Positions 16,801 to 56,210 of a DNA stretch of 64,000 nt are shown here, in pieces. A model generated the notes under the pieces. That model was given only the letters and a program-made list of their open reading frames with translations. It was not told where the DNA came from and did no database searches. How positions within the stretch are numbered: the first letter of the stretch is position 1; each line of letters opens with the position of its first letter. The translations under genes and the position numbers were made by a program. This DNA comes from an uncultured Candidatus Saccharibacteria bacterium (GTDB lineage Bacteria > Patescibacteriota > Minisyncoccia > UBA6257), in contig CAYZJA010000001.1 in NCBI GenBank assembly GCA_964479005.1, positions 128,001 through 192,000 of the forward strand, in the 5' to 3' direction.

Positions 16801-18201
16801 TCGTTCACTTTTACTATAAAGGATGATGTATATTCAGATAATAGTGGATCATTAACAGTTAAAATCTATAAAGGCTATGTAGGGGAAACTGGAGAAAAAG
16901 GATGTGTTACATTTAATGGTGTTCCTTATGGCGAGTATATAGTTGATGAAGATCTTCAAAGTGGTTGGATAAATCAAGATGGTTTAGGAAATGTTACAGT
17001 AGATGACCTAGAAGAAACATTTGATGTTGTCAATATTCCACCAGAAGGACAGATAGGTTCTTTAACTGTTTGTAAATATAGAGATCACGAACCATTTGGG
17101 GAATACAATACAGGTATTGATACACCTCTAACTTGGGAGATGAGAATTATTGGACCTAATAGTTATGATCAATTGTACGAAACTGATCCTCAGAATGGAT
17201 GCAAAACAATAAATAATTTAGAATATGGCCAATATGTAGTTTCTGAAGAATTGAAGATTGGTTGGGATCAAACTTATCCTCTTGATCCTAATACCCATAC
17301 CATTGATATAAATGGCGGTAATTCTAATCCATCAGTATATTTCTTGAATTATAAAACAATTGATAATGGTGGAACAAAATATGCTTGTAATGCAGAAGGG
17401 CAATGTATAGAAAATGAAGGGGGTAATTATACCACTTCTAATTGTGATGAAGAATGTAGACCATATCCATATACTTGTAATTCATCTACCTCAGAATGTG
17501 TACGTGATGTTCATGGCCAATTTGGTTTATTGCAAGGTTGTGAGGATGCTTGTAGGGTATCTACTCCATTAGGAGGTCAATATGCAATATTGGGAACAGT
17601 TTTGGGTGCTGCTACTGAAAAGGAAGAAGAACCTTGCGGTCTTTATCTTTTGGAATACATAAAGCTTGGAGGTGATAATAATCCTGAGGAAGTGAAGAAA
17701 TTACAATATTTCTTAAATGAATATCTTGGCATTAATTTAGAGATAACAGGAGTTTATAATCAAGCTACTTATCAAGAAGTTATGAGATTCCAGCTTCTTT
17801 TGAACGATGAAATTTTGGCTCCTTGGGTTGAAGTTAATTGTCTTCCATCTAGTAATATAGCTACTGGTTATGTTTATCGAACAACACAATGGAAAATAAA
17901 TATGATTGTTTGTCCAGAATTGAACCTTCCAGTACCGAATTTATATGATGAAACTTGTAAATATATTAGTCTATATCCAGGAGAAGGTGTAGTTGCTGGA
18001 GCAGCTACTTCTACAGTGGGTGGAACTAATGGAACTACCACAACTACCTCAACTACAACTCCTGAAACAATAGGAGATACTACAACAACTGTTCCTCAAG
18101 ATACTGGGGATGAGCAGTCACAAAATTGGATTTGGGTTTTGATTGGACTTTTAGTGATTGGCGGCGCAGCTTATTTGGTTTATCAAACTAGACAAGTATA
18201 A
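13879..18201 (+). CDS. giant (1440 aa) cell-surface protein with C-terminal TM anchor
   Basis: Signal peptide, multiple Cys-rich beta domains, two regions ~70% identical in protein to the 12024 gene product, a Thr-rich stalk (TTTTSTTTPETIGDTTTT), and a C-terminal helix 'WIWVLIGLLVIGGAAYLVY'. Confidence 0.6.
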   Translation: MKKQFFSKTFSIFLALSFVLSNSAMLVPLQAEACEEEICEDVIVVSNIEDKVFDIAETLPGEAAVLAWDDHPAWTAYIEGANWIWKTEYVENPDQDETYIFKKDFDIVGIPDSATLKVATDNSYSVWVNNVLIGEVITEDNHSSTTQDQYNNIVDFHTGSNEIKFEVKNWAGNASPKLNPAGLLYRLEIVRSSCEPQCIPQSSIETDCTNGLDDDCDGFIDSEDSDCQMLIMASKVICDNESDLPNWGTGSGVDYPSYNIDQNTASDYVAEHSGCYLASNWFFQWGQQGSDDFGKDFYGEAGNGYTTFGPTNENGVASTTVDSVTGSYLELREVLQQGYIPFTYDQSHKSNDNNISAEFYCHNDILNYDNWDYIKNPQLGITHYCVGFNALIEQEEPEPVCGNEIIETGEQCDPPSTTAPNSTDEYFCDQNCNLVPIYHSLDGCPKNQILEFIQSYQIHSTSTTEVIIPVSGSDTYKFEVKGTFYPTQNGKNENFLSDAAYTTEDGWVSTSTKYGIKGIPPDYAAHALLGDLGLGAGVINWGDYDSSHEYDFSYTIPSGATSTQFVIGDRWDNWFIPDDISWNNQGGMKDNLGNLTLDVYECKPIQARCDPKLELVMNGDFESPEVTDLVKKWGIFPSGTTDLEWLINWREIWPSAPKIANLEIQKSYYTPVIAPVVPGDPDQYAELDTDWHGPGGPSGEPASVAISQDIPTIIGETYRLSFDFSPRPYTDLEQNHLKGFVDSAELFDISADGSGLTDTLWNQYSDNFVATSSITNIKFTDYGTPDSLGTFLDNVSVRCVPQDEPTMYHCNEEWQCIADPEGEYNTDNCDNQCIKPGTSTVTICKYNEQEEPLRGWKMILKGDRYDTVPVFPDGQNYSSNPLLLGDYLIQASGQYLYRPGTPGAEYSDAGYTKRNCPGDADYLCSGDYTPWFNVFDIIGIHQGWLGIMVNDNLTDWGYFTSDHTYTLGYPGYSGSFTFTIKDDVYSDNSGSLTVKIYKGYVGETGEKGCVTFNGVPYGEYIVDEDLQSGWINQDGLGNVTVDDLEETFDVVNIPPEGQIGSLTVCKYRDHEPFGEYNTGIDTPLTWEMRIIGPNSYDQLYETDPQNGCKTINNLEYGQYVVSEELKIGWDQTYPLDPNTHTIDINGGNSNPSVYFLNYKTIDNGGTKYACNAEGQCIENEGGNYTTSNCDEECRPYPYTCNSSTSECVRDVHGQFGLLQGCEDACRVSTPLGGQYAILGTVLGAATEKEEEPCGLYLLEYIKLGGDNNPEEVKKLQYFLNEYLGINLEITGVYNQATYQEVMRFQLLLNDEILAPWVEVNCLPSSNIATGYVYRTTQWKINMIVCPELNLPVPNLYDETCKYISLYPGEGVVAGAATSTVGGTNGTTTTTSTTTPETIGDTTTTVPQDTGDEQSQNWIWVLIGLLVIGGAAYLVYQTRQV
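16548..16730. repeat. inter-paralog DNA repeat, copy 2
   Basis: Matches 12560-12742. Confidence 0.8.
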
Positions 18202-18994: not shown

Positions 18995-19549
18995 ATGAAA
19001 AATCAAATATCAAAAATTCCGGTTTTAGTTGCTTTTCTGACAATTATTCCGTTAGTTTGCGGGGCTTTTTCCTTTGAAGAACCTTTTGATGATTTTGAAG
19101 AATGGATTTCGGATCTTAGTGATGGAATGAGTAGTACTCATATAATAAATGAAGTTAAGGTTTTAACAAATACTGGCAATAATGTAATTAATGGCGAAAT
19201 AACAGAAGGTGAAGCAAAAAGCCGGATTTTTATTAAAAACGTTATTAATGGAAAAGAAATAGACCCAATTGAGATTGAATCTGATAAAAACGAAATTAAA
19301 GTGGAAAGCCAAATTAAAACAGAAAATGGCAAAGTTATTATTCAGAGAGAAATTCAAATTGATTCTGAAAAAAGCACTGAAAATTATGAGGTTGATTTGG
19401 AAAATTCAGAAACTGAGACAGAAAGTGAAGGAATATTGAAAGACGGTTTAGATTCCTTTCAAGAAGGATGGTTAGATTTTATCGAAGATTTAAGGTCTTT
19501 TTTTGACGATATCTTTAATATTTTTAAATTAAATGCAAGAATCAAATAG
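18995..19549 (+). CDS. secreted acidic protein carrying one copy of the same repeat
   Basis: Start chosen at the ATG at 18995, which gives the signal peptide 'MKNQISKIPVLVAFLTIIPLVCGAF'. 'INEVKVLTNTGNNVINGEITEGEAKSRIFIKN' matches the repeat. Confidence 0.45.
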   Translation: MKNQISKIPVLVAFLTIIPLVCGAFSFEEPFDDFEEWISDLSDGMSSTHIINEVKVLTNTGNNVINGEITEGEAKSRIFIKNVINGKEIDPIEIESDKNEIKVESQIKTENGKVIIQREIQIDSEKSTENYEVDLENSETETESEGILKDGLDSFQEGWLDFIEDLRSFFDDIFNIFKLNARIK

Positions 19550-22163
19550 ATTAAAAAACTTTATTTTAATTCCTTTGCTAATCATAAGTTTGGTAGGTTT
19601 TAATTTTTATCCCTTTTTGGTTTTTGCAGAAGGAGATGGAGTTGTCACCGAAGGAGTAGTAATTGAGAATAATGAAGACACGCAGATTGTTACTGGAGAT
19701 TCTAATACTGAAGTTAATCTTGAAAACACTGTAAATTCTAATCTTACCGAATTAAACGGGGATGATTCTTCAGACGGAGAATCAGAACCTCTTGAGAATT
19801 TAGAATGTGAGGAAATTGATGTTACTACTTCAAGCACTGATGTTGTTTTTAATATTGCCAATGATAATGAGGCAGAAGTAGAGAATAATATCGAGACTGA
19901 GGAAGAAACTGGAGATAATGAAATTGATCAAAGTGAAGGAGATGCCATCATTGACACCGGAGATATAAATTTAGTCGTTGGCGTAGTTAATACAGTCAAC
20001 ACTAATGTTACTGGTTCTGATTTTTCTCAGCTTTTGTTAAACGTTTTTGAAAATTTAGAAGAAGATATTGATTTATCTGACCAATTAATGGGAATTTCTT
20101 CTTTGGAAAATTGTTATTCACCAATGGAATGTTTTGATCTTAATATTGTTAATGATAACCAAGGAAGTATTGAAAATAATATTTTAGTTGATGCATCAAC
20201 TGGCGAAAATACTGCCCAGAGTATTGATGGAGACGCAATCATTAAGACCGGTAACGCTAATGTTGCAGTTAATGCTTTAAATATTCTCAATACCGATATT
20301 ATCGGCTCAAACTGGACTCAGCTTATTATCAATGTATTTGATAATTGGACTGGCGATTTAGTTTTTCCCGGAAAAGGAAAAATGCAAGGATTTTTAAATC
20401 AAAAACCGCGCTCCTGTGAAGGAGATTGTGGAGATACTAATATAGTTAATTCTAATGAAGGCGAGATTGAAAATAAAGTCCATGTTCAGGCTAATACTGG
20501 CGAAAATCAATCTAATGGAAATTCAAGTATTATCCGCACTGGCCAAGCTAATGCTGAAGTTAATCTTTTAAATATTGCCAATACTAATTTATATGATAAG
20601 AATTGGTTTTTTGTAGGAATTAATAATTTTGGCAACTGGAAAGGAAATGTATTTAGTTTGCCTCCTGGTTTGGAAATGTCAGGAGATTCTAATAGTGTTC
20701 AAATTTATAATCTTGAACTAGAAGATGTTAATAATCCAACAGAAGATTTTGATAATAACACCAGTGGTAATTCTTTGAATATAGTCAATGAAAATACCGG
20801 GATTATTAAAAATAATATTATAGTTAATCTTTCGACTGGCGAGAACTCAGCTATTTCTTCTAACGGTCAGACAACGATAGAGACCGGAGATGCCAATACC
20901 CTAACTAACATTGCCAATCTTTTAAATTCAAATATTGTCGGCAGTAATTGGCTTTTGGGAACTGTAAATATTTTAGGAGATTGGAATGGAGATTTGGCTT
21001 TTGGCCGTCCTGATAATTGGATTGGTGGGAGTGTTGCCTCTTCTCATAATCCGGTTTCTCCTGGAGAAACTATAACTTATACTTTGACATATATTAACAA
21101 TGGGGATGCTGATGCTACACAAGTAATGATTATTGATGATTACGATGAGGCGCATCTTTCTATTATAGATACAGGTGGTGGAATTATCATTGATAATCCT
21201 GGCGAGATTCAGTGGGACATTGGAACAATTGCAGTAGGCGGTTCCGGTTCAGTTTCTTATTCTGCTGTAATTGATCCAGAAGTACCTTATGGTACTACCT
21301 ATCTTACTAATCAGGCGACAATTGATAGTTTTGAAGAAGATTTTAATAATGAAGATAACATTGAAATTTTATCAATTGAAGTGTATAGACCTTTGCCAGT
21401 TGCTTCAGTTATGTTGGGTTTTTCTTCTCCCTCGTCTTCGCCAAAATTGGAAATTAGCAAAACTCACAATGTAGATGATTTCGTTTATTCAGGAAGCGAT
21501 GTTGATTTTAAGATAGTGCTATATAATGATAGCGATAGTTCTGCTTATGATGTTGTCGTTTATGATACTTTACGGAACGATGCATCTGAAGCGATCAGTA
21601 CTTCCCATTGGGATTTGGGAGAAGTTTTCCCTCACGAAGAAATAATTATTGACTATACGGCAGCCATAGGTTCTGAGTTTCCAGCCGGCTTTTATACTAA
21701 TATAGCTGAGGCTCTAGGTTTTGATAGCCAGGGAAATCCAGTTAGTTCTCCTGAGGCCTCTAGCACAATTGAGGTTAGGGCGGCAGAAGTTCCTCCTGAT
21801 GAAACAGAGGAAGTGGAGGAAATTTCTCTTGAGGAGATAGAAAAGGAATTAAAAGAAATGAAAGACAAGATAAGAAAAATAAGAGAAGAGATAGAAAGAC
21901 TTTCTCATCCGTCTCCAGTCGAAGAATTTACAAGTTCTCTTCCAAAACAATTAATATCAGAGGTTTTGGCTGCTGAAGAACCTTTTGTTCCCAAAGAAAA
22001 AATTAATTTGCCTGAAAGAGGTTTGGCTCCGTTGCTTTTGGCTAGCTTAAGAGAGATAGGGGGAACGGATTGGATGATGATTTTGGCCATTTTTTGCCTT
22101 ATTGGGTTAATTATAATTGGAATTAGAGAGTGGGAATTAATTCGAAAAAAGAAAAAGAGATAA
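19533..22163 (+). CDS. large surface protein: 4 copies of the ~50-aa repeat + DUF11/CARDB-like domains + C-terminal TM anchor
   Basis: Four 'IENN(I/V)xVxAxTGxNxAxSxxGxAxIxTGxAxxxVNxLNIxNTxxxGSNW' units. 'PGETITYTLTYINNGDADATQVMIIDDYD' is DUF11-like. Coiled-coil 'EEIEKELKEMKDKIRKIREEIERL'. Terminal helix 'WMMILAIFCLIGLIIIGI'. Confidence 0.55.
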   Translation: MQESNRLKNFILIPLLIISLVGFNFYPFLVFAEGDGVVTEGVVIENNEDTQIVTGDSNTEVNLENTVNSNLTELNGDDSSDGESEPLENLECEEIDVTTSSTDVVFNIANDNEAEVENNIETEEETGDNEIDQSEGDAIIDTGDINLVVGVVNTVNTNVTGSDFSQLLLNVFENLEEDIDLSDQLMGISSLENCYSPMECFDLNIVNDNQGSIENNILVDASTGENTAQSIDGDAIIKTGNANVAVNALNILNTDIIGSNWTQLIINVFDNWTGDLVFPGKGKMQGFLNQKPRSCEGDCGDTNIVNSNEGEIENKVHVQANTGENQSNGNSSIIRTGQANAEVNLLNIANTNLYDKNWFFVGINNFGNWKGNVFSLPPGLEMSGDSNSVQIYNLELEDVNNPTEDFDNNTSGNSLNIVNENTGIIKNNIIVNLSTGENSAISSNGQTTIETGDANTLTNIANLLNSNIVGSNWLLGTVNILGDWNGDLAFGRPDNWIGGSVASSHNPVSPGETITYTLTYINNGDADATQVMIIDDYDEAHLSIIDTGGGIIIDNPGEIQWDIGTIAVGGSGSVSYSAVIDPEVPYGTTYLTNQATIDSFEEDFNNEDNIEILSIEVYRPLPVASVMLGFSSPSSSPKLEISKTHNVDDFVYSGSDVDFKIVLYNDSDSSAYDVVVYDTLRNDASEAISTSHWDLGEVFPHEEIIIDYTAAIGSEFPAGFYTNIAEALGFDSQGNPVSSPEASSTIEVRAAEVPPDETEEVEEISLEEIEKELKEMKDKIRKIREEIERLSHPSPVEEFTSSLPKQLISEVLAAEEPFVPKEKINLPERGLAPLLLASLREIGGTDWMMILAIFCLIGLIIIGIREWELIRKKKKR

Positions 22164-39531: not shown

Positions 39532-39620
39532 CTATTAAATCGTCAATTAATTGATGATTTTTTTATTTTAAAAATAAATTGTGGTATAATTATTTAATAA
39601 TATTAAAATGTTATAAAAAG

Positions 39621-42600
39621 ATGAGTTTTAATAGATCTATAAAAATTTCTGTTGTATTTTTAGTTATTTTCGCTTGGGTATTAAATAGCTTTCCTTTGAA
39701 AGCGGCTGACGGTTCTGGTACAAATGTTGTTGATCCGATTACTGCTACGGCCAGCGCTACAGATAAAACTTTTGATTTTACTTTTACTGCGGCAGAAACA
39801 ATGGATTCTGGCGAGATTTCAATAGCAGTGCCTAGTGGCTGGTCTGCTCCACAAGATATATCAACAACAGTTGGTTATACAACAGCTGCTTCTACTGGTA
39901 TGACAGCTGATGTTTTAACCGCTTTAGATACTCATACTGGTTGGAGCACAGGCAGTAATATAGCCATTTCTGCTGATGGCGCTGATTATCAGGAGGGTTC
40001 ATATTCTATTTCAGCTGATATTGCTGTAGGAGCTCAGGCTGGTGAAAAGTGGTATTTTAACGAACCTGGAGCAAAAGATTTTGGCAGCGCCACAAAGATG
40101 ATTTTTTGGATTAAATCAAGTGTTAATACTAATGCTGGTGATTTGCAATTTGAGGTTGATGATTCTGCTGATTTAGCTTCGCCAGAAGAGACGGTTAATA
40201 TTCCAGCTTTAACAGTTGATACCTGGACTGAAGTAACAATTAGTTTAGGAGCAGCTCGCAGTTCAGTGCTTTCTTATGGAATCAAATACACTGTTGATAT
40301 TGGAGCAGCTACTGTGAAAATTGATGATATAAGGGCAATGTTTGATGATGCTGATGCTACTACTAGTTGGACTCAATCTGGTAGTGGAAAGATTACTATT
40401 AGCTCAGATGCAGCAATAAAAAAACAGGGTACAGCTTCAATCAAAGCTGCCTTTCTCCCTCAGGCTAAACCCTTGGATAAATATTTTTGGTCAAGCGCTA
40501 CACCGAGAAGTTTTGGTTCTTACGCTAGAGTTTCTTTTTGGATTTATTCGAGTAAGGCAACAGAAGCTGATGATTTGAAATGGGAGAATGATAATAGTAC
40601 AGGTCTAGCCTCGCCCGAAGATACTATTGGTCTTCCAGCCCTAGCTGCTACTACCTGGACCTATCTCCAGGTTACTCTTGGGGCAACCAGGACTTCGGTT
40701 CTCTCCCACGGTATTCACCAAGTAATTGACTTAGGAGCTCATAATGAATATGTTGACGCTATGGCTGTGCAGGTTAATGCAGCTGAATCAACTACTAATT
40801 GGACAAAGACCTCTCCAATGGTTTTAAGCACTGATACAACTGTTTATCATGAAAATGCTGCGTCTTTGAAAAATATTGTAGCAGTTACTGCTGGAACTGG
40901 AGATGAATGGTGGTATAATTTAGGAGCTGCAGATGATTGGTCAAGTTATACTAATGTTGGTTTTTGGATTCGTTCAACAGTTAATACTTCTGGTGGAAAT
41001 TTACAATTTGAATATGATGATAATACTGATTTAGCTTCTCCAATTGCTTCTCTTGATATTGGCGCTTTAACTGCTAATACCTGGTCTTATCAAAATTTAA
41101 CTTTAACTGATACTCGAACAACTATTAATAGTTATGGTTTTAAATATACTACTGATGTAGGAGCAGTTATTATTAATGCTGATGATATTCTTTTGGGTCC
41201 TGGAGAACCAAGTTTTTCTGGAAGCGGACCGTGGGATATTAATGTAAGAATTTTAGCTTTAGCTAATACAGAAACAATTACTGTGACTTATGGTGATAAT
41301 GCAGGTTCTGGAGGTGGAGTAACTGTTACTTCTGCAACTGGTGACGCTACTTTTACAACCAAATCCAGAATTTCTGATTCAGGAACTCTTACTAATATTG
41401 CCTCTTCTCCAGTTGTAACAGTCGGCACAGCACTGGTTGTTGATAATGTTCAGTTAAATGGTCAGGCTGCAATTGATTTAATTGAAAACACAACTAAATC
41501 TGTATCAGCTACAGCTAATATTTCTCATCCTACAGATTGTAATCTTATTACCAATGTAACATCTAAAATTTATCGTTCAGGTGTCACTAATAATAAAGAT
41601 TGCACATCTGATAATAATGATTGTTATAGTGTTGCTTCTTGCAGTAAAACTTCTTGCGTTGAAACAGAGGCTGTTTATACTTGTACGATTAATATGCAGT
41701 TTCACGCTGATCCGACTGATGAAGATGCAGAATATTGGAGAGCTTGGATTGAAGCAACTGATGGATCTTTGACAAATTCTAATTATAGTCCAGTTGACGC
41801 GCCTGATGTTAATACTTTACGGGCTCTGAATACTACTGCGACAATTAACTATGGAACATTAGATCCCGGACAAAATAGTACCTCGACAAATCAACAAATC
41901 ACAGTGACAAATACTGGCAATGATGCTATTGATATTAGACTTTATGGTATTGATATGACTTGGAACGGAAATACTATTGACACAGCTAATCAAGAATACA
42001 GTTTATCTCCATTTACTTATGGTTCTGGAAATTATCTTAAGGAAGCACCAAGCTATGATGATGTGGATGCTAATTTGCCAAAACCTACAGAATCGCCATC
42101 AAATTCGTCAGATATTTTTTATTGGGGACTAGGTATTCCTTCACCAATGCCTTCAGGTGGACCTTATCAGGGAACAAATACATTTGAAGCGATAAATGAT
42201 CAGGGGGTACTTGGTTGGTATAATCCATCTTGGGGATATAGAGTAAAAGTTACGGTTTTAGCATCAGAAGTTGACGCTGATTTAACTGATTATCCCGTAT
42301 ATGTAGATTTATCTAATTTACCAGCAGGATTTCATACTAATGTTAACCAGACAGATGCAAGGGATATTCGTGTTACGAAATATAATGGTACATTAGAAGT
42401 TCCAAGGGAAGTTGTTTTTTATGATTCAGCAACTGATACTGGGGAGTTACATTTTAAAGGAAATGTAGATGATGGTACAAATACTGATTTCTATATTTAT
42501 TATGGAAATGGTGGGGCAAGTGATTATGCGGTAGATGCAGAATTTGGGGCAGAAAATGTTTGGAATGCGAATGCCAAAATGGTTCAGCATATGAAAGATG

Positions 42601-43244
42601 ACCCTGACACTTCTCATATTAAAGACAGTACTGTGAATGCTAATAATGGCACAAAAAAAGCAGCAAATGAACCGGTAGAAGCAGACGCTAAAATAGCCAA
42701 AGGGCAAAGTTTTGACGGAGCGGATGATTATGTGGATGCTCCTATTCCCAACCTAATTGATTACACTTATGAAGCGTGGTTTTATACTCGAAGTTTTGTT
42801 AATGGTAATGCTAATGATGGTACGGGCACTTATTTTATAGATAGACAAATTGGAGGTAACTCATTGGTTTCTCTAAAGGCTATTAGTGGAAATTTCGCAC
42901 ATCAGTATAGAGATAATGCTGGTGCAGGTCTTGGAGCAGTTCAAGGTGGCGCAATTCAGCTAGATACTTGGCAGCATGTTGTTTGGGGAAGGGAGGAAGG
43001 AATAGGGTTTTTCATTTATGTTGATACTATCAAAAATAGCGTTGCTGATACTCTTGGTGCTTTGACTCCCGACTCACCAAGAATTGGAGCACATCAAGGT
43101 TTAGTAATTTTTTTAAACGGTCTCATCGATGAAATTCGTATATCCAATATTGCACGTTCTTCAACCTGGATTTCTACAGAATACAATAATCAGTCATCAC
43201 CTAGTTCTTTTTACACAGTGGGAAACCAAGAAGAGAGTTACTAA
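39621..43244 (+). CDS. giant secreted protein: 4 tandem ~135-aa repeats + DUF2341-like + LamG/ConA-like lectin domain
   Basis: Signal peptide 'MSFNRSIKISVVFLVIFAWVLNSFPLKAA' from the ATG at 39621. Repeats read '…TGW(S/T)…W(Y/F)…(K/S)…FWI(K/R)SSVNT…G(D/N)LQFE(V/Y)DD…DLASP…'. 'YRVKVTV…YVDLSNLP' is DUF2341-like. The C-terminal 'FDGADDYVDAP…WQHVVW…' is LamG-like. Confidence 0.6.
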   Translation: MSFNRSIKISVVFLVIFAWVLNSFPLKAADGSGTNVVDPITATASATDKTFDFTFTAAETMDSGEISIAVPSGWSAPQDISTTVGYTTAASTGMTADVLTALDTHTGWSTGSNIAISADGADYQEGSYSISADIAVGAQAGEKWYFNEPGAKDFGSATKMIFWIKSSVNTNAGDLQFEVDDSADLASPEETVNIPALTVDTWTEVTISLGAARSSVLSYGIKYTVDIGAATVKIDDIRAMFDDADATTSWTQSGSGKITISSDAAIKKQGTASIKAAFLPQAKPLDKYFWSSATPRSFGSYARVSFWIYSSKATEADDLKWENDNSTGLASPEDTIGLPALAATTWTYLQVTLGATRTSVLSHGIHQVIDLGAHNEYVDAMAVQVNAAESTTNWTKTSPMVLSTDTTVYHENAASLKNIVAVTAGTGDEWWYNLGAADDWSSYTNVGFWIRSTVNTSGGNLQFEYDDNTDLASPIASLDIGALTANTWSYQNLTLTDTRTTINSYGFKYTTDVGAVIINADDILLGPGEPSFSGSGPWDINVRILALANTETITVTYGDNAGSGGGVTVTSATGDATFTTKSRISDSGTLTNIASSPVVTVGTALVVDNVQLNGQAAIDLIENTTKSVSATANISHPTDCNLITNVTSKIYRSGVTNNKDCTSDNNDCYSVASCSKTSCVETEAVYTCTINMQFHADPTDEDAEYWRAWIEATDGSLTNSNYSPVDAPDVNTLRALNTTATINYGTLDPGQNSTSTNQQITVTNTGNDAIDIRLYGIDMTWNGNTIDTANQEYSLSPFTYGSGNYLKEAPSYDDVDANLPKPTESPSNSSDIFYWGLGIPSPMPSGGPYQGTNTFEAINDQGVLGWYNPSWGYRVKVTVLASEVDADLTDYPVYVDLSNLPAGFHTNVNQTDARDIRVTKYNGTLEVPREVVFYDSATDTGELHFKGNVDDGTNTDFYIYYGNGGASDYAVDAEFGAENVWNANAKMVQHMKDDPDTSHIKDSTVNANNGTKKAANEPVEADAKIAKGQSFDGADDYVDAPIPNLIDYTYEAWFYTRSFVNGNANDGTGTYFIDRQIGGNSLVSLKAISGNFAHQYRDNAGAGLGAVQGGAIQLDTWQHVVWGREEGIGFFIYVDTIKNSVADTLGALTPDSPRIGAHQGLVIFLNGLIDEIRISNIARSSTWISTEYNNQSSPSSFYTVGNQEESY

Positions 43245-43337
43245 AGTGAAAGTGCTTGTCCATAAATATTGACATTGTTTTCTAAATAAATTATATGTTA
43301 TAATAAATAAACAAAACTATGACTAATTCCATATCTT

Positions 43338-43391
<54 letters not shown>

Positions 43392-43396
43392 ATCGC

Positions 43397-43427
43397 GGTT
43401 TTTCAGAAAAACCCTTTTTTTGTTGGT
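43397..43427 (+). terminator. intrinsic terminator
   Basis: cGGTTTTTCaGAAAAACCctttttttg. Confidence 0.6.
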
Positions 43428-43506
43428 TCAGTCTATAATACTTAACTTAGGCTGGACTTTTTTATTTGTTAATAAAAATTAAATTTTAAAAATAAAATTA
43501 AAAAAT

Positions 43507-45243
43507 ATGCCTAAAATAATAAAAAAATCTATTCCTTGGTTTTTAATTGTAAGTTTAACTCTTGCAACAGTATTAACTTTTAACTTTATGAGTTCAAGAG
43601 TTGAAGCTGATTCAGCAGATACTTCAGTAAGTGTAGGTAATACCACACCAACTTTTAATAGTGGTTATGAGCCTCATGAAGACATAGCTTCAGATGGTAC
43701 GACTCCGACAAATGTTGGTAGTGATGTAACTTTTAAAGCAACAGCAACTGACGCTAATAGTGATGATTGGAAGCTTTTGATTTGCGACAGTCCTGGTACA
43801 ACCGGTGTGACTTGTACTGGTACTGTAATTTGTAATACTGCTGTTGCAGTAAGTTCTGATACAGAAGCTACTTGTAGTTATACTGCGCTTATAGGTGATA
43901 ATCAATCAATTGATTGGTATGGTTATGCTTGTGATTCAACAGGATGTTCTGACGAGGATCACAAAGTAGATGCTTCTGGTCCTCCATTTAAAGTTAATCA
44001 TAGTCCAGCATTTACTGTTTATGCAGATGATGGACCTAAAGGACCTAACGCTACTATTACCTGGACTACCACAGCTTCTGACACAGATGATGATACAGAG
44101 CAAGATACGATAAGCTTATATGTTTGTAAAGCAGATGATTTTACCGGTTCTGCGTGCGGAGTTGGAGGACAGTGGTGTTCATCACTTAACGATGCTGATG
44201 GTGATCCAACTTGTAACGAAACCACTCCGAGACCAGATGGTGATTATGCTGCTTATGGTTATATAGTTGATAGCCATAGTTTAGTTTCTGTAGGTACAGC
44301 AGAAGGAACTGATTCTTCACCAACAGTTACTAATAGCACTCCTTCAATTACTGATTCTTCAATTAATTTATTAGACACAGATGGAAGCGGCAATTTAGAA
44401 TTAATTGATGAGCAAGCTGAAACTGCTAATTTTACAGTTACTTTTATAGTAAATGATGAGAATAGTTGTGAAAATATTACGTCCGGAGATGAAATATCTT
44501 CAGCTTTTATTAATGTAAGGATGTCAGAAAAACCAACAGGCGACTGTGATATTACTGGTGAATATAATGCTAATGATTGTTATCCAGATGATTATACTGA
44601 ATGGAATCCTGTTTGCGCTGCTTCTTCAACAGTTGATGCTTGTAATGGTGATACTGATACTACTGTTGGTTGGGCATGTACTTTCCCTTTACAATATCAT
44701 GCTGATCCAACAGTTACTGGAACTCCAAAGGCAGCTTATACCTGGATAGCAGCTGTTCAAGCTGAAGATGATCAGGCAGCTAATACGGGTCTAATAGATT
44801 CTTCAACTGGCAGCAATGATATTGATAAATTTATGTCTTATAATTTAACTACTGCCTCAATTGCTTATGGTACAGTAGCTCCTGATGATTACAGCTTAGA
44901 GCAAACCACAATTATTGAGGCTACTGGTAATGTTGGATTAGATGAGAATCTTTTGGGGAGTCTGTTATGTAATGATTATGAAACTTGTGCAGGTGATGAT
45001 GATATCGCAATTGCTGAACAACATTATAATCTAAGCCAAGGCGCAGGCTGGGCAGCTGGAACAGAACTTACTGATAGTTTGGTTGAATCTGAGCTTAATT
45101 GTACGAAGACTACTATTACTGGAACTCCAGAAACAAAAAGTACTTATTGGTATTTGCATATACCTCTAGGTCAAGGTGTAGATAGTTATACTGGTGAGAA
45201 TACTATTGAAGGCAAGGTTGATAATGAAACTTACGAAACATAA
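43507..45243 (+). CDS. secreted Thr/Asp/Cys-rich surface protein
   Basis: Signal/TM helix 'IPWFLIVSLTLATVLTF'. Shares the 'GWACTFPLQYHADPT' module with 39621 ('YTCTINMQFHADPT'). Confidence 0.5.
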   Translation: MPKIIKKSIPWFLIVSLTLATVLTFNFMSSRVEADSADTSVSVGNTTPTFNSGYEPHEDIASDGTTPTNVGSDVTFKATATDANSDDWKLLICDSPGTTGVTCTGTVICNTAVAVSSDTEATCSYTALIGDNQSIDWYGYACDSTGCSDEDHKVDASGPPFKVNHSPAFTVYADDGPKGPNATITWTTTASDTDDDTEQDTISLYVCKADDFTGSACGVGGQWCSSLNDADGDPTCNETTPRPDGDYAAYGYIVDSHSLVSVGTAEGTDSSPTVTNSTPSITDSSINLLDTDGSGNLELIDEQAETANFTVTFIVNDENSCENITSGDEISSAFINVRMSEKPTGDCDITGEYNANDCYPDDYTEWNPVCAASSTVDACNGDTDTTVGWACTFPLQYHADPTVTGTPKAAYTWIAAVQAEDDQAANTGLIDSSTGSNDIDKFMSYNLTTASIAYGTVAPDDYSLEQTTIIEATGNVGLDENLLGSLLCNDYETCAGDDDIAIAEQHYNLSQGAGWAAGTELTDSLVESELNCTKTTITGTPETKSTYWYLHIPLGQGVDSYTGENTIEGKVDNETYET

Positions 45244-45291: not shown

Positions 45292-46227
45292 ATGGTTTTA
45301 AAGAGGATAATTTTATTTATAGTTTTGTGTTCACTATTTAGTTTTAGTTTGATTAATGTTGTTCAAGCTGGCTTTGGAATTTCTCCGCCATATATTAACA
45401 ATGAAAATCTTAGTCAGGGTTCTTATTATGAAAAGAAAATCACATTAGTAAGAGGCGATCCAATTGAAGATTGGAAAGTGGAAATAATTACCAATGTTCC
45501 CGGAGCTGATGATTGGATTTCAGTTAACAAAGGAAAAGAATTTATTATGCCAAAAGGAGCCCAGCAGGTTCCTATTGTTTTTAGTATTGATGTTCCAAAA
45601 AATGCTAAATTTGGAAGATATACAGGAAGTATTAGAGTAAAAACCGCGCCAGTAAAAGATCCAGAAGAAGGAACAATATCAATTCTTTTAGGAGGACAAA
45701 TTGACGTTGATTTAAATATTCAAAAAGAAATTTTTGATTTTAATGTAAGAGGAATAAAAGCTTCTGATTTAGAAGAAGGAGAAAAGCGATTGATATTTTA
45801 TTTTCCGGGAATAATAAAATTCTCAATGCAAATTGAAAATCTTGGGAATATAAAAGCTGCTCCAAGCAAAGTGCTTCTTGAGATTTATGATGAAAAAGAA
45901 AACGAACTTTTGGAAACGATTCAAACCACTAAGATGAATAAAATAAATCCATTTGAAATAGATTGGGTTATTGCCGAACTTAAAACTAAGTTAAAAGCCG
46001 GCAGTTATTACGCGCAATATCAAATTTTTAAAAAAGATGAAGTGGTAAGTCAAGGAAAAATTCATTTGAGCATTTTATCAAAAGGTGCCATTGCTGATTA
46101 TCAAAGGGCAACAATTTTTGATATAGGAGTAAAAGATAAATTAATTATTTTATTTGGAATTTTAGCTAGTATTGGATTAGTGATTTTTGTTATTCCAAAA
46201 ATTATTAGAACTTTTCGAAAAAAATAA
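45292..46227 (+). CDS. secreted protein with C-terminal TM anchor
   Basis: Signal peptide and a terminal 'LIILFGILASIGLVIFVIPKIIRTFRKK'. Confidence 0.4.
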   Translation: MVLKRIILFIVLCSLFSFSLINVVQAGFGISPPYINNENLSQGSYYEKKITLVRGDPIEDWKVEIITNVPGADDWISVNKGKEFIMPKGAQQVPIVFSIDVPKNAKFGRYTGSIRVKTAPVKDPEEGTISILLGGQIDVDLNIQKEIFDFNVRGIKASDLEEGEKRLIFYFPGIIKFSMQIENLGNIKAAPSKVLLEIYDEKENELLETIQTTKMNKINPFEIDWVIAELKTKLKAGSYYAQYQIFKKDEVVSQGKIHLSILSKGAIADYQRATIFDIGVKDKLIILFGILASIGLVIFVIPKIIRTFRKK

Positions 46228-46248: not shown

Positions 46249-47160
46249 ATGTTCAGAAATTCAAATCGTTTTGGAATTTTTATTATTATTTTAATTTTTT
46301 TTGGATTTTTATCCTCAATCTTTTTATTTCCAAAAAAAACATTTTCAGAAATGCTTTCTACTTCTGTACAGGTACAGATAGTAACTACAACCATCGGTGG
46401 CGGAGGTGGGGGTGGGGGATATATTCCACCTTTGCCACCAGAAACAAAAGTTATTTTTGAAGGAAGGGCTTATCCTTTAAGTAAAGTTAATATTCTTAAA
46501 GATGGTCAGTTAGCTGTTAGCACTATTTCTGGTCCAGATGCAAAATTTTATGTTTCAATAGAAGGCTTATCTTCTGGAAACTATTTGTTTGCAGTTTATA
46601 GCGAGGATAGTCAGGGAAGACGTTCTGTATTATTCACTTTTCCGGTTTTTATTACTCAAGGAGTCACCACCAAGATAAGTGGTATTTTTATTGCGCCAAC
46701 TATTGATGTAGATAAATTGGAAGTCAAAAAAGGGGAAGTAATTAAAATTTTTGGCCAAACAGTTCCTAATATCGATGTTGCCGTTATCATTAATTCCGAA
46801 GAAGAAATTTATGGGAAAACAAAATCAGACGAAATAGGCGCTTATCTTTATAATTTAGATACTATAGAAGTAGAAATGGGAAATCATTTGGCAAAATCAA
46901 GGGCTACTATTGAAGAAGAAATTAGTCCTTTATCGCAAGCAATAAGTTTTAAGGTAGGAACAAAAACAGTTTTAAAAGAAACTGTAAAAATACCAGAAAA
47001 AGGGGATTTAAATAATGATAAAAGGGTAAATTTGGTTGATTTTTCCATTCTTGCTTATTGGTATCAAAGGCCATCACCTTCAGCAACAGTTGATTTTAAC
47101 AATGATGGAAAAGTAAACTTAGTGGATTTTAGTATAATGGCATACTACTGGACAGGTTAA
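46249..47160 (+). CDS. secreted protein with C-terminal type-I dockerin
   Basis: Two Ca-binding repeats: 'DLNNDKRVNLVDFSILAYW' and 'DFNNDGKVNLVDFSIMAYYW'. Also an internal Gly8 tract. Confidence 0.7.
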   Translation: MFRNSNRFGIFIIILIFFGFLSSIFLFPKKTFSEMLSTSVQVQIVTTTIGGGGGGGGYIPPLPPETKVIFEGRAYPLSKVNILKDGQLAVSTISGPDAKFYVSIEGLSSGNYLFAVYSEDSQGRRSVLFTFPVFITQGVTTKISGIFIAPTIDVDKLEVKKGEVIKIFGQTVPNIDVAVIINSEEEIYGKTKSDEIGAYLYNLDTIEVEMGNHLAKSRATIEEEISPLSQAISFKVGTKTVLKETVKIPEKGDLNNDKRVNLVDFSILAYWYQRPSPSATVDFNNDGKVNLVDFSIMAYYWTG

Positions 47161-47200
47161 AATTTTCAATTTTTAATTTCCAATTTTTAAATAAATTCTA

Positions 47201-48172
47201 ATGACAAAAACTCAAAAACTAATTTTTATTCTTCTATTTTCTACTTTCTGCTTTCTATTTTTTAGTTCTTCTTCTACTTTAGCCGCGGAGTTATATTTGG
47301 AGAATTCCGAGGATAATTATTACGTTGATGAAACTTTTATTACTGATATAAGGATTAATGTTGAAAATAATGAAAGCATTAATGCTATTGAAGGTTATTT
47401 AAAATTTCCAAGTAATATTTTGGAAGTAAAAGATTTTAGCACTGGTAATTCGATACTTACTTTTATTGAAGAGCCAAAAATTAATAAAGAAGAAGGTTTG
47501 ATTTCTTTTGTTGGAATTATTCCTGGTGGATATAGTGGAAGGATTCCTGGTGATCCTGGACAAAGTAATCTTTTAGGAAAAATAATTTTTTATTCTATTT
47601 TTTCTGGCACAGCAGAGATTATTTTTGAAGATAGATCACAAGCATTATTAAGCGATGGGGAGGGAACACCAGCTAAGTTAATTAATAAAGGAGTAACTAT
47701 TGAGATCGTAACTAAACCCTTCGACTACGCTCAGGGCAAGGATGAATGGCAGGAACAATTAGAAAAAGACAAAATTCCTCCAGAAGATTTTAAACCAGAA
47801 ATTATTAAAATTGATGATAAATATTATTTAGCTTTTACTACTAAAGATAAAGATTCTGGTATTGATCATTATGAAGTTTTAGAAAAGAATTTTTGGACAA
47901 ATATAAGTAAATTATTAGGAAGAGAAAAATGGATAGTCGCAGAAAGTCCTTATTTATTAAATGGGCAATCATTAAGTAATAGGATAGAAATAAAAACAAT
48001 AGATAAAGCGGGCAATGAGAGAATTGTTAAATTACCAGCTACATATTATTTGCCTTGGTATAAAAATTACTTTATTTGGGTTATACTTATAATAAGTATT
48101 TTTTATGTGATATGGAGAATAATCGCGAAACAGAAAAAAAACAATACGCGAAACCCCGAAGAAAAGCCTTAG
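47201..48172 (+). CDS. membrane-anchored cohesin-like scaffold protein
   Basis: Signal peptide. 'ELYLENSEDNYYVDETFITDIRINVENNESINAIEGYLKFPSNILEVKDFSTGNSILTF…' has the cohesin-type beta-sandwich pattern. C-terminal TM helix 'YFIWVILIISIFYVIWRI'. Confidence 0.5.
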   Translation: MTKTQKLIFILLFSTFCFLFFSSSSTLAAELYLENSEDNYYVDETFITDIRINVENNESINAIEGYLKFPSNILEVKDFSTGNSILTFIEEPKINKEEGLISFVGIIPGGYSGRIPGDPGQSNLLGKIIFYSIFSGTAEIIFEDRSQALLSDGEGTPAKLINKGVTIEIVTKPFDYAQGKDEWQEQLEKDKIPPEDFKPEIIKIDDKYYLAFTTKDKDSGIDHYEVLEKNFWTNISKLLGREKWIVAESPYLLNGQSLSNRIEIKTIDKAGNERIVKLPATYYLPWYKNYFIWVILIISIFYVIWRIIAKQKKNNTRNPEEKP

Positions 48173-49929
48173 GCTTCCTACGGGGCAGGCAGACGCGAAA
48201 TTTCTTAATTTGGTTTAGCGTCGGTTTAGCGTTTTTCCTTGGCGTTGGTTTAACGCTGCCTGTGGTAGCGCAAGCGGCAAGTCTATATTTTTATCCTTCA
48301 TCTGGTTCTTATTCCATTGGTCAAACTCTTACTGACTCTGTCTATGTTTCCAGTTCTGATCAGGCAATCAACGCGGCTTCAGGAATTATTTCCTTTCCAC
48401 AGAATAAAATACAGGTTGTATCACTTTCAAAAACAGGTTCTATAATGAGTCTTTGGGTTCAAGAACCATCTTTTTCTAATACTATTGGGACAATCAACTT
48501 TGAAGGTATTATATTAAATCCTGGGTTTATCGGAAATAATGGCAAGATTATTGATATTATTTTTAAATCAAAGGCGTCAGGAATTACACCGTTAAGTTTT
48601 TTTTCAGCGTCAGTTTTGGCTAATGATGGTAAAGGGACAAATATTTTAACAAGCTCTGGGAGCGCTAAATATAATATTATAATCACTACAACTACAGCAA
48701 CCTCGCCAAGTATACCAACTGGGGATGCAAGAACGCCAAGCGCTGTAATTATTTCTTCTGAAACTCATTCCGATTCTAATAAGTGGTATAGTTCTGCAAC
48801 AGCTGAACTTTCTTGGCCTTTAACTGATGATATTACGGCTACTCGTCTTCTTATTAGCAGAAGCTCAAAAGCTTATCCTACTGTGATTTATACACCTGCG
48901 ATTTCTTCTAAAACAATCACCAATTTAGGTGAGGGTATTTGGTATTTTTATGTACAGCTCAGAAATAAATATGGGTGGGGTGATGTTGCTCATTTTCGTT
49001 TACAGATTGATAATACTCCTCCAGGGCCATTAGAAGTTGAAATAGACAATGAAGGAGACCCTACTAATCCTCAGCCCTTGCTTTGCTTTAAAACAAGTGA
49101 TTTTTTATCAGGAATTGATTTTTATGAAATAAAGATTGGAGAGATCTATAATCTCCAGATTTCAATTAATGAAATAAAGGATAATATTTATCGTTTACCG
49201 CTTTGTCCTCCAGGCGAATATTCATTAATAGTAAAAGCCGTAGATAAAGTAGGAAAATACAGTTCAGTAACAAAAAAATTAAATATAGCATCAATAGACG
49301 TTCCAATTATTAGTGACTACTCAAGAATATTATCTAAAAATGATTACTTAGTAATTCTGGGTTATGCAAGATTAAATGATATTGTAAAGTTGTTTATTAA
49401 AAGTGAAAATAAAAAAGTTGCAAGTTATATTGCTAAACGCGATAATGAAAAATGGAGTTATAAAGCAGAAAAACCTTTGCAAGCAGGGATTTATGCAATT
49501 TGGGCACAAGCAGTTGATTCTCGTGGAGCTAAAAGTAATTTTTCAGAAAAAGTCGAAATTTCCGTAGATTCTCCAGCATTTCTTAGATTTGGATTTGGCA
49601 ATTTTATAGTTAGTTATATTGATATTATAATTATTTTTATTATTCTTATTGTTCTTACAGCATTGGCTTGGGTCTATTATGCAAGAATAAAATTAGTGCA
49701 GACAAATCTTCTTAAAGAAGATATTACACAGACTCAGAAAAACTTATACGAAGCTTTTGATCTTTTGAGAAGAGAAGTTACAAGAGAAATAGCCAAACTT
49801 GATAATAATGATCTTTTATCAGAGAGAGAAGAAGCAGTTAATGAAGAATTGAAAAAAGCTATTAGAAAGTCAGAAGAGTTAATTACTGAAGAAATTAAAG
49901 ATATAAAAGAAAAAATAGACAAATCGTAA
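48112..49929 (+). CDS. membrane-anchored cohesin-like scaffold protein with C-terminal coiled coil
   Basis: Start taken at the ATG at 48112 (basic tail then signal anchor). 'ASLYFYPSSGSYSIGQTLTDSVYVSSSDQAINAASGIISFPQNKIQVVSLSKTGSIMSLW' is paralogous to the 47201 domain. A TM helix follows near the C-terminus, then a charged coiled coil. Confidence 0.5.
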   Translation: MENNRETEKKQYAKPRRKALGFLRGRQTRNFLIWFSVGLAFFLGVGLTLPVVAQAASLYFYPSSGSYSIGQTLTDSVYVSSSDQAINAASGIISFPQNKIQVVSLSKTGSIMSLWVQEPSFSNTIGTINFEGIILNPGFIGNNGKIIDIIFKSKASGITPLSFFSASVLANDGKGTNILTSSGSAKYNIIITTTTATSPSIPTGDARTPSAVIISSETHSDSNKWYSSATAELSWPLTDDITATRLLISRSSKAYPTVIYTPAISSKTITNLGEGIWYFYVQLRNKYGWGDVAHFRLQIDNTPPGPLEVEIDNEGDPTNPQPLLCFKTSDFLSGIDFYEIKIGEIYNLQISINEIKDNIYRLPLCPPGEYSLIVKAVDKVGKYSSVTKKLNIASIDVPIISDYSRILSKNDYLVILGYARLNDIVKLFIKSENKKVASYIAKRDNEKWSYKAEKPLQAGIYAIWAQAVDSRGAKSNFSEKVEISVDSPAFLRFGFGNFIVSYIDIIIIFIILIVLTALAWVYYARIKLVQTNLLKEDITQTQKNLYEAFDLLRREVTREIAKLDNNDLLSEREEAVNEELKKAIRKSEELITEEIKDIKEKIDKS

Positions 49930-54659: not shown

Positions 54660-56210
54660 ATGGATATAAATCATATTGGAATAACAAATTTTAGAGATGA
54701 ATTTCAGCGATTTGGCATTAAAGCCGATGATAGGCGTCGGCATATATATTTTGTTGGAAAGAGTGGAGTAGGTAAGACTACAATGATGGAGAATATGATT
54801 ATTCAGGATATTAATAATGACAAAGGTGTATGTGTTATTGATCCTCACGGAGAATTAATAAACAGAGTTCTTTACTTTATTCCTGAAAACAGAATAAAAG
54901 ATGTGATTTATTTTAATCCTGGCGATGTTGAATGGCCAATTGCTTTTAATGTTATTGAAGAAGTTCCAGTAGAATATCGCCATTTGGTTGTAGCGGGTTT
55001 AATGGGAGTCTTTAAAAAAATCTGGCCAGATGTATGGTCTGCCAGAATGGAATATATCTTAAATAATGCTTTACTGGCTCTTTTAGAATATCCTGGAGCA
55101 ACGCTTTTAGCTGTAAACAGATTGCTTTCTGACGAAGATTTTCGTAAAGCAGTAATGAAAAAGGTAACAGATCCAATAGTTAAATCTTTTTGGGAAAGAG
55201 AGTTTGCTCGTTATAATGCCCGCTTTGCGACAGAAGCAATTGCTCCAATTCAAAATAAAGTTGGGCAATTTATTTCAAACCCTTTAATTAGAAATATTAT
55301 TGGACAGAAAGAATCAAAAATTGATATCAGGAAAATAATGGATGATGGTAAGATTCTTTTAGCTAATTTGTCAAAAGGAATGGTTGGTGAGGATAATTCT
55401 AGTCTTTTGGGAGCTCTCTTGGTTACAAAAATACAATTAGCTGCAATGAGCCGTATAGATGTTCCTGAAGAGAAAAGAAAGGATTTTTATTTGTACGTAG
55501 ATGAGTTTCAAAATTTTTCCACTGAATCATTTGCTTCTATTTTTGCCGAAGCTAGAAAGTATCGTTTAAACTTAGCTTTAGCTCATCAATATATAGCTCA
55601 ACTTAATGAGCAAGTTAAAGATTCTATTTTTGGTAATATAGGAACTTTGATTTCTTTTAGATTGGGCCCTGAAGACGCGGAATTACTGGAAAAATATTTT
55701 GCTCCAGAATTTTCAAAAGAAGATTTAATTAATCTTCCAAATTATAATTTTTATATAAAATTGATGATTGATGGTGTTTTGTCCAAAAGTTTTTCAGCGA
55801 TGAATATACCACCTTCTAGTTTGCCAGAGAACTCGTTTATACAAGAAATAATTCAGTATTCACGTGAGCATTATGCTGCTTTGCGGCAAGAAATTGAAAA
55901 GAATATCGCGCATTGGGAGTTATTGGATTTTTCTCCAAGCTTCAAGGCAGGGGATCTTAGAAGCAGAAAAGTTGGCGTTAAAGAAGGTTGGGAAGCTGTA
56001 TGTTCTCAATGTGGAAAAAGAATTATTGTACCTTTTCAACCAGATCCTGCCAGGCCTGTTTATTGTGATGAATGTTTTAAAGAAATACGAAGGCAAAGAG
56101 GAAAAGATTTAACACATGCAAATTCTGTTCAGCATACTCAATCTAAAATTAAACCAAAAAAAGAAGAAATAAAGGAGGTAATTAAAAATATTTTCCGTCA
56201 GGATACTTAA
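54660..56210 (+). CDS. TraD/VirD4/HerA-FtsK-superfamily P-loop ATPase with C-terminal zinc ribbon
   Basis: Walker A 'FVGKSGVGKTT' followed by 'VIDPHGE' (compare TrwB 'DPKGD'). Walker B 'LYVDEFQNF'. 'EARKYRLNLALAHQ' is a sensor/arginine-finger region. Terminal 'CSQCGKRII…PVYCDEC'. Confidence 0.55.
   Translation: MDINHIGITNFRDEFQRFGIKADDRRRHIYFVGKSGVGKTTMMENMIIQDINNDKGVCVIDPHGELINRVLYFIPENRIKDVIYFNPGDVEWPIAFNVIEEVPVEYRHLVVAGLMGVFKKIWPDVWSARMEYILNNALLALLEYPGATLLAVNRLLSDEDFRKAVMKKVTDPIVKSFWEREFARYNARFATEAIAPIQNKVGQFISNPLIRNIIGQKESKIDIRKIMDDGKILLANLSKGMVGEDNSSLLGALLVTKIQLAAMSRIDVPEEKRKDFYLYVDEFQNFSTESFASIFAEARKYRLNLALAHQYIAQLNEQVKDSIFGNIGTLISFRLGPEDAELLEKYFAPEFSKEDLINLPNYNFYIKLMIDGVLSKSFSAMNIPPSSLPENSFIQEIIQYSREHYAALRQEIEKNIAHWELLDFSPSFKAGDLRSRKVGVKEGWEAVCSQCGKRIIVPFQPDPARPVYCDECFKEIRRQRGKDLTHANSVQHTQSKIKPKKEEIKEVIKNIFRQDT

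Follow-up and report, generated by a model that had tools for sequence, protein, structure and literature searches.

The 64,000-nucleotide (nt) stretch analysed here (the window), part of contig CAYZJA010000001.1 of an uncultured Candidatus Saccharibacteria bacterium, encodes between positions 46249 and 49929 a conserved envelope operon of the candidate phyla radiation (CPR; Patescibacteria) in which, with a probability that we put at about 0.65, a non-cellulosomal cohesin–dockerin pair tethers a secreted protein non-covalently to the cell surface. Gene 1 encodes the secreted protein, which ends in a dockerin, and genes 2 and 3 encode two membrane-anchored cohesin proteins (cohesin proteins 1 and 2). 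This reading starts from directly observed domain identities, predicted topology, operon conservation, natural gene fusions and a pattern of conservation; from the synteny we infer that the dockerin binds the cohesins, and calcium dependence, surface location, stoichiometry and biological role are proposed in the same conditional sense. Public annotation already labels some members by domain, so that the novelty lies less in the domains, which were known, than in a conserved membrane-anchored operon and its breadth, no description of which was found in the full-text literature on dockerins or cohesins, searched mostly with CPR lineage names.

All three genes were called as open reading frames (ORFs) on the + strand at the coordinates of Table 1. 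The product of gene 1 matches Pfam Dockerin_1 (PF00404, type I-like) over amino acids (aa) 251–298 with 33.4 bits against a threshold of 22.9 bits (E = 5.4e-8). Its two calcium loops, DLNNDKRVNLVD (nt 47005–47040) and DFNNDGKVNLVD (nt 47092–47127), both carry D1/N3/D5/D12 and are followed by helices at aa 262–271 and 291–302 in an AlphaFold2 (AF2) model, so that the two repeats have the EF-hand-like arrangement of loop and helix. The repeats are identical to each other at 14 of 20 positions. D253, D257, D264, N284 and D293 are invariant in the family alignment, as is the C-terminus, ...YYWTG. The protein has 2742 homologues, which among the matches listed are typically ~60% identical over ~80% of the length, and PF00404 is carried by most of the 120 homologues among the matches listed. 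Features kept family-wide are the poly-glycine run, two Ig domains and the dockerin with its terminal motif; the dockerin is the best-conserved segment of the protein, with a mean pairwise identity of 72% vs 59–62% for the Ig domains.

The model of this protein (mean predicted local distance difference test, pLDDT, of 77) comprises a signal helix, a short strand, a disordered poly-glycine segment, two confident beta-sandwiches and the two dockerin helices, the last with low confidence. Neither Pfam nor Foldseek found an enzyme or catalytic domain in it. Foldseek returned solely tandem Ig/FN3 matches (Bap, the FN3 modules of CbhA, S-layer proteins, SiiE), which are generic and too unspecific to assign a role. 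The part that precedes the poly-glycine run differs among family members and may be missing altogether, a Cys-rich DUF4215-type repeat or a 100–150-aa extension with FN3; the run itself is presumably a hinge between this variable N-terminal part and a conserved stalk. Long variants, found at four loci, carry a conserved 'FSSxNF...GQ..G.SSS..F...GFxYFP' segment, which matched no assigned family, and an FN3 domain ahead of the poly-glycine. In the window protein (aa 1–64, nt 46249–46440) the mature N-terminus begins with an alternating-hydrophobic beta-strand, SVQVQIV (IKVxISV in relatives), followed by a Thr-rich stretch and then the glycines. This strand is reminiscent of donor-strand or strand-insertion motifs, and the residues ahead of the mature N-terminus in the family (..FSE, ..VFA, ..AKA) look like signal-peptidase sites. 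The JGI gene call is short (269 aa, from Met35 at nt 46351); Logan assemblies and homologues favour the 303-aa form with its signal peptide.

Because the window sequences of genes 2 and 3 miss the Pfam Cohesin threshold, their assignment as cohesins rests on a structure model and on orthologues. Gene 2 begins 40 nt after gene 1. The AF2 model of its product, built on the family alignment (mean pLDDT 84), consists of an all-beta module at aa 29–170 (pLDDT mostly >85, ~76 in the loop at aa 111–120), a second beta module at aa 197–278 and a transmembrane (TM) helix at aa 290–316; the first module is assigned to the cohesin fold, a nine-stranded jelly-roll beta-sandwich of ~140–150 aa. All of the top 50 Foldseek matches in the PDB are cohesins. 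The best is 2w1n (E = 3.3e-11), the cohesin+FN3 double module of Clostridium perfringens GH84C, with an identical two-module layout, and 2vo8 superposes on the model with a TM-score of 0.84 and a root-mean-square deviation of 2.5 Å. A search of the PDB with the sequence profile of the family yielded merely a weak cohesin match (5g5d, E = 0.2). The databases hold 946 homologues of gene 2, of ~315 aa, a few of them already named 'cohesin domain-containing protein' by NCBI; at 50% identity the family forms 1838 clusters (E ≤ 1e-30), and Pfam Cohesin is matched by 19 of 36 aligned members (E ≤ 0.01). The second, FN3-like module of cohesin protein 1 (aa 190–271, 'DKxSGIDxYE...VDKAGN') also occurs elsewhere in long arrays, repeated 31 times in a protein of 4269 aa and 18 times in one of 2468 aa.

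Gene 3 overlaps gene 2 by 61 nt when read from the ATG at 48112; the ORF list starts it at a TTG (48076), and the ATG gives a 605-aa product identical to a public gene call (P0241). Its N-terminal module is common to cohesin protein 1 (BLASTP, 31% identity over 154 aa, E = 9e-14), a second, shorter module is shared as well, and the profiles of the two families align with an hhalign probability of 99.9% (E = 1e-33, 253 columns), from which a cohesin fold is predicted for gene 3 also. Of its 747 homologues 30 were aligned, and Pfam matched Cohesin in 16 (E ≤ 0.01) and Big_13 in 29 of these; a Nealsonbacteria orthologue lies above the Cohesin threshold with 33.5 bits. The PDB profile search with this family returned the Ig domains of SiiE. 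Three Ig-like modules follow the cohesin, one of them homologous to the FN3-like module of protein 1 and one a Big_13 domain; protein 2 is thus an extended paralogue of protein 1, composed of cohesin, an extra Ig-like module, the shared FN3-like module, Big_13, a TM helix and a tail. The gene 2 model, its Foldseek matches and the Pfam matches of family members and orthologues together identify both proteins as divergent cohesin proteins, by homology and not by their own Pfam scores.

Hydropathy profiles show an N-terminal hydrophobic, signal-like segment in all three proteins and a C-terminal TM segment in both cohesin proteins, and this predicted topology, completed by basic cytoplasmic tails, fits tethering at the surface. 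The tail of protein 2 is 45% charged, lacks Pro and Gly and looks helical. Since heptads are only weakly marked in it, with hydrophobic residues at 11 of 23 a/d positions, the long intracellular coiled coil proposed in an earlier note on this DNA is plausible, not demonstrated, and what stands is a charged, helical-looking tail of 78 aa. The motifs INA, F.G and L.NDG.GT are kept in both cohesin paralogues across 58 genomes, and by strand order, an approximate mapping, they fall on strands 3, 5, 6 and 8. The sheet 8-3-6-5 is the dockerin-binding face of canonical cohesins, and the position of the motifs on the presumed binding sheet of both paralogues is suggestive. At 65% mean identity the cohesin is the best-conserved module of protein 2, the others having 42–57%; the cohesin of protein 1 reaches 52%.

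A scan with the dockerin-family alignment, using one genome per species, recovered the dockerin protein in at least 533 species genomes, nearly all of them bearing CPR labels. The 80 best loci were studied further by searching all their ORFs with family hidden Markov models (HMMs), and gene order was counted at the 61 loci whose sequence continues for 3 kb or more beyond the dockerin gene. At 59 of these 61, the dockerin gene is followed on the same strand by a cohesin-1-type and then a cohesin-2-type gene, adjacent or overlapping, the cohesin-1 reading frame starting a median of 4 nt after the dockerin gene ends. The remaining two loci still have a cohesin gene, which in one of them is a cohesin1–cohesin2 fusion (L078:6835-9468). 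Such fusions, 866–886 aa in length, also occur in several independent database clusters (P0252, P0255, P0345); in them the protein 1 TM helix and the hydrophobic segment near the N-terminus of protein 2 persist as an out-in-out membrane hairpin, which places both cohesins outside the cell. Near-invariant synteny and the natural fusion of the cohesin genes support the view that the three proteins would act together. Record titles of the 80 best loci name Colwell-, Jorgensen-, Torok-, Portnoy-, Kaiser-, Magasanik-, Veblen-, Taylor-, Vogel-, Uhr- and Wolfebacteria, Peribacteraceae, Paceibacterota and Minisyncoccia; homologues or syntenic loci also came from Nealsonbacteria, where a complete genome has the same gene order, from WWE3 and from others. 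Seven contigs with the operon are filed as 'Gammaproteobacteria' or 'Methylomirabilis' metagenome-assembled genomes and are possibly mis-binned or mislabelled CPR.

The earlier note had described a 303-aa secreted protein ending in a dockerin with two calcium loops, then two membrane-anchored cohesin-like proteins with paralogous beta-sandwich modules of ~140 aa, all in a non-cellulolytic, CPR-like setting. With this description the Dockerin_1 score and loop positions of gene 1, the fold model of gene 2, the paralogy and orthologues of gene 3, the C-terminal TM segments and the spread of homologues and syntenic loci over many CPR lineages agree.

Table 1. Features of the operon and of the genes upstream of it (positions in the window).
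Feature	Position (nt)	Strand	Parts	Evidence
Dockerin protein (gene 1), 303 aa	46249..47160	+	Signal peptide aa 1-34; short alternating-hydrophobic strand; poly-Gly aa 50-57; Ig-like domains aa 67-147 and 156-237; C-terminal dockerin	ORF list, Pfam, family alignment, AF2 model
Poly-glycine run G50-G57 of dockerin protein	46396..46419	+		G53-G56 invariant across family; pLDDT <50
Dockerin module aa 251-303	46999..47157	+		Two 12-residue calcium loops, helix after each
Cohesin protein 1 (gene 2), 323 aa	47201..48172	+	Signal peptide aa 1-28; cohesin aa 29-172 (nt 47285-47716); FN3-like aa 190-280 (nt 47768-48040); TM aa 291-309; short basic cytoplasmic tail	AF2 model, Foldseek, family Pfam matches, TM segment
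Cohesin protein 2 (gene 3), 605 aa	48112..49929	+	N-terminal signal/anchor aa 31-53; cohesin aa 54-204 (nt 48271-48723); three Ig-like modules, among them Big_13 aa 421-486; TM aa 503-521; 78-aa charged helical cytoplasmic tail (nt 49693-49926)	Public call P0241, paralogy with protein 1, Pfam on orthologues
WxLIP-like accessory protein, 311 aa	45292..46227	+	Signal peptide; two Ig-like domains; C-terminal TM aa 284-302	Jackhmmer, PF06030, PDB profile match
Large acidic Thr/Asp/Cys-rich secreted protein, 1221 aa	39579-43244			
Large acidic Thr/Asp/Cys-rich secreted protein, 578 aa	43507-45243			

A member of the family of the gene at 45292–46227 immediately precedes the dockerin gene at 36 of 71 loci (Jackhmmer), and this gene probably belongs to the conserved unit. 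Its product (signal peptide, ~250 beta-rich aa, C-terminal TM helix) fits the DUF916-DUF3324-TM architecture of WxL-interacting proteins (WxLIPs), and the family profile matches the Enterococcus faecium protein EfmWxLIP1 (PDB 9i1y_A) at aa 41–258, nearly full length, with E = 4.4e-4. PF06030 (WxLIP_PGBD) gave weak, sub-threshold matches (E ≤ 0.01, best E = 1.6e-4) in 8 of 18 family members and no match in the window protein itself. This weak similarity suggests a distant relative of the WxLIPs. The latter have two Ig-like domains and a TM anchor, and the proposal for them is that they bind secreted WxL proteins and stabilise these on peptidoglycan (PMC10599100). No WxL domain was matched among the neighbouring proteins; the neighbour here is the dockerin protein. 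Loci without the WxLIP-like gene have longer dockerin proteins (median 441 vs 348 aa, Mann–Whitney p = 8e-4).

Further upstream, the 1221-aa and 578-aa proteins match no Pfam family above threshold and contain no dockerin by Pfam, regular expression or family HMM, and relatives of them lie near the operon in merely 2–4 of ~80 other genomes. They are outside the conserved unit and were rejected as clients; the guarded suggestion of the earlier note that the system organises these large surface proteins is not supported.

From these parts we propose the following arrangement. The 303-aa protein would be exported by Sec and lose its signal peptide, and its C-terminal, internally symmetric, calcium-binding dockerin would plug into the cohesin at the membrane-distal end of either type-I membrane protein from the adjoining genes, or of both. 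The two membrane proteins would stand side by side in the membrane and act as a pair, holding their cohesins at different heights, above one spacer domain in protein 1 and three in protein 2. The docked protein would form a stalk of two Ig-like domains and, beyond the poly-glycine hinge, expose a lineage-variable N-terminal end (a bare strand, a Cys-rich repeat or an FN3-containing extension) that may point outward as the business end, in adhesion or in an envelope structure. A conserved helical tail would reach the cytoplasm from protein 2 alone and suggests a link to some intracellular component. In about half of the genomes the WxLIP-like membrane protein probably joins the complex and would add a further membrane or wall contact. 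A bolder version, which we entertain only tentatively, makes of this a core, lineage-defining envelope machine of Patescibacteria, in which a pair of TM-anchored cohesins, one of them wired to the cytoplasm by its helical tail, would hold an Ig-stalk protein whose exchangeable head contacts the host or builds the CPR surface layer. Cohesin–dockerin docking would then be the principle by which the CPR cell surface and episymbiotic attachment are organised, not an accessory adhesin.

Several observations weigh against tethering by a cohesin–dockerin pair. The dockerin part of the monomer model is poorly confident (pLDDT ~55). Of the two Pfam families that the earlier note had named, Dockerin_1 is found above its threshold, and Cohesin (PF00963) is not reached by the window proteins themselves: gene 2 scores 13.3 bits against the required 24.1, and gene 3 has no Cohesin match. 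The model gives no reason for keeping two cohesin proteins that have diverged to 31% identity beside one dockerin, and the cohesins may have other clients. Lastly, a surface adhesin would not usually reach the ~60% identity observed across CPR lineages; such conservation argues for a housekeeping role in the envelope over fast-evolving, host-specific adhesion, and the variable head of the docked protein could supply specificity.

The three products might instead be co-expressed surface proteins that do not dock with one another, the dockerin serving as a calcium-stabilised or glycan-binding end module and the cohesin-like sandwiches binding, for example, a host or wall polysaccharide. In favour of this, dockerin and cohesin modules outside cellulosomes are widespread, reportedly across all domains of life (as Peer and colleagues are said to have described in 2009), and their partners are mostly unknown. 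To our knowledge, however, each characterised pairing of a cohesin with a dockerin fold is a cognate interaction, and here the dockerin gene strictly adjoins cohesin genes at 59 of 61 species loci across deep CPR lineages. Dockerin and cohesins are moreover the best-conserved modules; that this holds for the dockerin and the cohesin of protein 2 within their own proteins we count in favour of docking. The one CPR dockerin protein discussed in the literature, SEML1_0315, essential in the Saccharibacteria species Southlakia epibionticum, was speculated by Wang et al. (2023) to target host glycans, and the word 'cohesin' is absent from the supplementary tables of that paper (PMC10633639). This is a different, isolated protein of 927 aa, its gene lying between those for an alpha/beta hydrolase and a tRNA; it is not a member of the operon and was rejected as an orthologue. 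On balance, we regard mere co-expression as unlikely.

A further alternative accepts docking for one cohesin protein only and lets the other bind a client encoded elsewhere, so that the operon would be an anchoring platform with two sockets. The two paralogues, only 31% identical, are each maintained separately across the CPR, and their cohesins differ in conservation (65% in protein 2 vs 52% in protein 1). Six loci have three cohesin genes behind the dockerin gene, not two, which would suit a platform of this kind. Against it, the conserved motifs of the presumed binding sheet are common to the two paralogues, and the similarity of the two dockerin repeats (14 of 20 positions) is a symmetry that in type I dockerins allows cohesin binding in two orientations. 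Nor was a candidate for the second client found: no further dockerin or cohesin was detected in the window (regular expressions, Pfam on the other large ORFs scanned, family HMMs), and family HMMs found no second dockerin of the operon's type in ~1 Mb of related loci, within ±8 kb in ~80 genomes. One dockerin per operon, with no other of its type in these sequences, was likewise counted for docking, and a division of labour between the two cohesins strikes us as decidedly improbable. Least credible is a miniature cellulosome or enzyme scaffold, in which the two cohesins would gather, as in cellulolytic clostridia, several enzymes with dockerins or else the large surface proteins encoded upstream: the domain types are those of cellulosomes and large secreted proteins are encoded just upstream (39579–45243), but the sole dockerin protein of the window has no catalytic domain, there is no carbohydrate-binding module (CBM), SLH domain or multi-cohesin scaffoldin, the upstream proteins have neither dockerins nor conserved proximity to the operon, and the other large window ORFs scanned add no cohesin or dockerin.

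SecD and SecF genes lie downstream of the operon, a neighbourhood that is not conserved at other loci. A promoter and terminator scan between 39000 and 50600 was uninformative: promoter-like sites are no commoner than in shuffled sequence, and terminator-like sites occur at about twice the shuffled number (11 vs 5.5), none of them marking the ends of the operon; the NCBIfam scan gave no meaningful matches. Further large surface-type proteins are encoded at 12024–13772, 13879–18201 and 19533–22163, with DUF642 and SpaA-like prealbumin-fold domains and DUF11 repeats. A homologue of VirD4/TrwB-type coupling proteins of type IV secretion, with a C-terminal treble-clef zinc finger, is encoded at 54660–56210 beside genes for D-Ala-D-Ala ligase and DnaG primase. 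With the exception of one 2-kb bin, GC skew is positive throughout the window, and nearly all ORFs of at least 150 aa lie on the + strand, which fits a single replichore with strong gene-strand bias.

CPR bacteria form a very large, mostly uncultured radiation attached to other cells, and the proteins with which they build their surfaces and attach are largely unknown. In this setting, a module of three to four genes that is present in at least 533 species genomes, is unusually conserved for extracellular proteins and is built from a biochemically well-understood interaction pair offers a concrete hypothesis, docking, that is open to direct testing with recombinant modules and, should the few tractable CPR strains carry the operon, by genetics in these. 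A compact, naturally membrane-anchored cohesin–dockerin pair is also of possible use for surface display. Metagenome surveys count cohesin and dockerin domains as markers of polysaccharide degradation (PMC7038595); automated 'cohesin' or 'dockerin' calls in CPR genomes are no evidence of cellulose degradation.

Among known systems, the classical cellulosome shares with the operon the same two interaction folds, and in this sense only, that of the docking domains, does the 'cellulosome-style docking' of the earlier note hold. In cellulosomes dockerins sit on carbohydrate-active enzymes, and here the only dockerin protein of the window is made of Ig-like domains and no enzyme is present. In place of a scaffoldin with tandem cohesins and a CBM there is one cohesin per protein and no CBM match, and in place of SLH or sortase anchoring, for which Pfam results contained no SLH or LPXTG match, there are C-terminal TM helices. 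The WxL/WxLIP clusters of enterococci and lactobacilli (PMC10599100) resemble the arrangement proposed for the operon in another respect, a secreted protein being held non-covalently by a TM-anchored two-Ig-domain protein of the same cluster. Here, however, the client ends in a dockerin and not in a WxL domain, there are two cohesin anchor proteins whereas WxL clusters have none, and the similarity of the upstream gene is weak (E ~1e-4, below the Pfam threshold).

The cohesin and dockerin of Archaeoglobus fulgidus likewise come from a non-cellulolytic organism and have no known natural function; the cohesin structure (PDB 2xdh) matches the gene 2 model with a TM-score of 0.76 at Foldseek rank 32. 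This system is archaeal and its gene organisation is another; we know of no membrane anchoring by C-terminal TM helices in it. The use of the Archaeoglobus cohesin and dockerin as a binding pair has been noted (PMC12484212). The non-cellulosomal system of C. perfringens (GH84C/NagJ, 2w1n; 2vo8, 2jh2; toxin and glycosidase complexes) is the closest in structure, shares the order of cohesin then FN3 and does not serve cellulose degradation. Its modules are said, in work by Adams and colleagues from 2008, to lie on large secreted glycoside hydrolases and toxins and to link these enzymes to each other; unlike the CPR system, it is not known to have TM anchors, a conserved operon or a CPR distribution, and sequence identity is just 12–15%.

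In function, a parallel is offered by OlpA and OlpC of Clostridium thermocellum (PDB 3ul4, 4dh2), structures of which are among the Foldseek matches of the gene 2 model (ranks 24, 26 and 33). Anchoring there is to the wall through SLH domains, where the CPR proteins have a C-terminal TM helix; the proteins anchored are enzymes or scaffoldins and not a two-Ig-domain protein without a catalytic module, and the CPR operon differs in being a fixed set of three genes. Common to both is the principle that one cohesin per anchor keeps a dockerin protein on the surface of cells that lack an outer membrane, which for the CPR proteins would be the docking proposed here.

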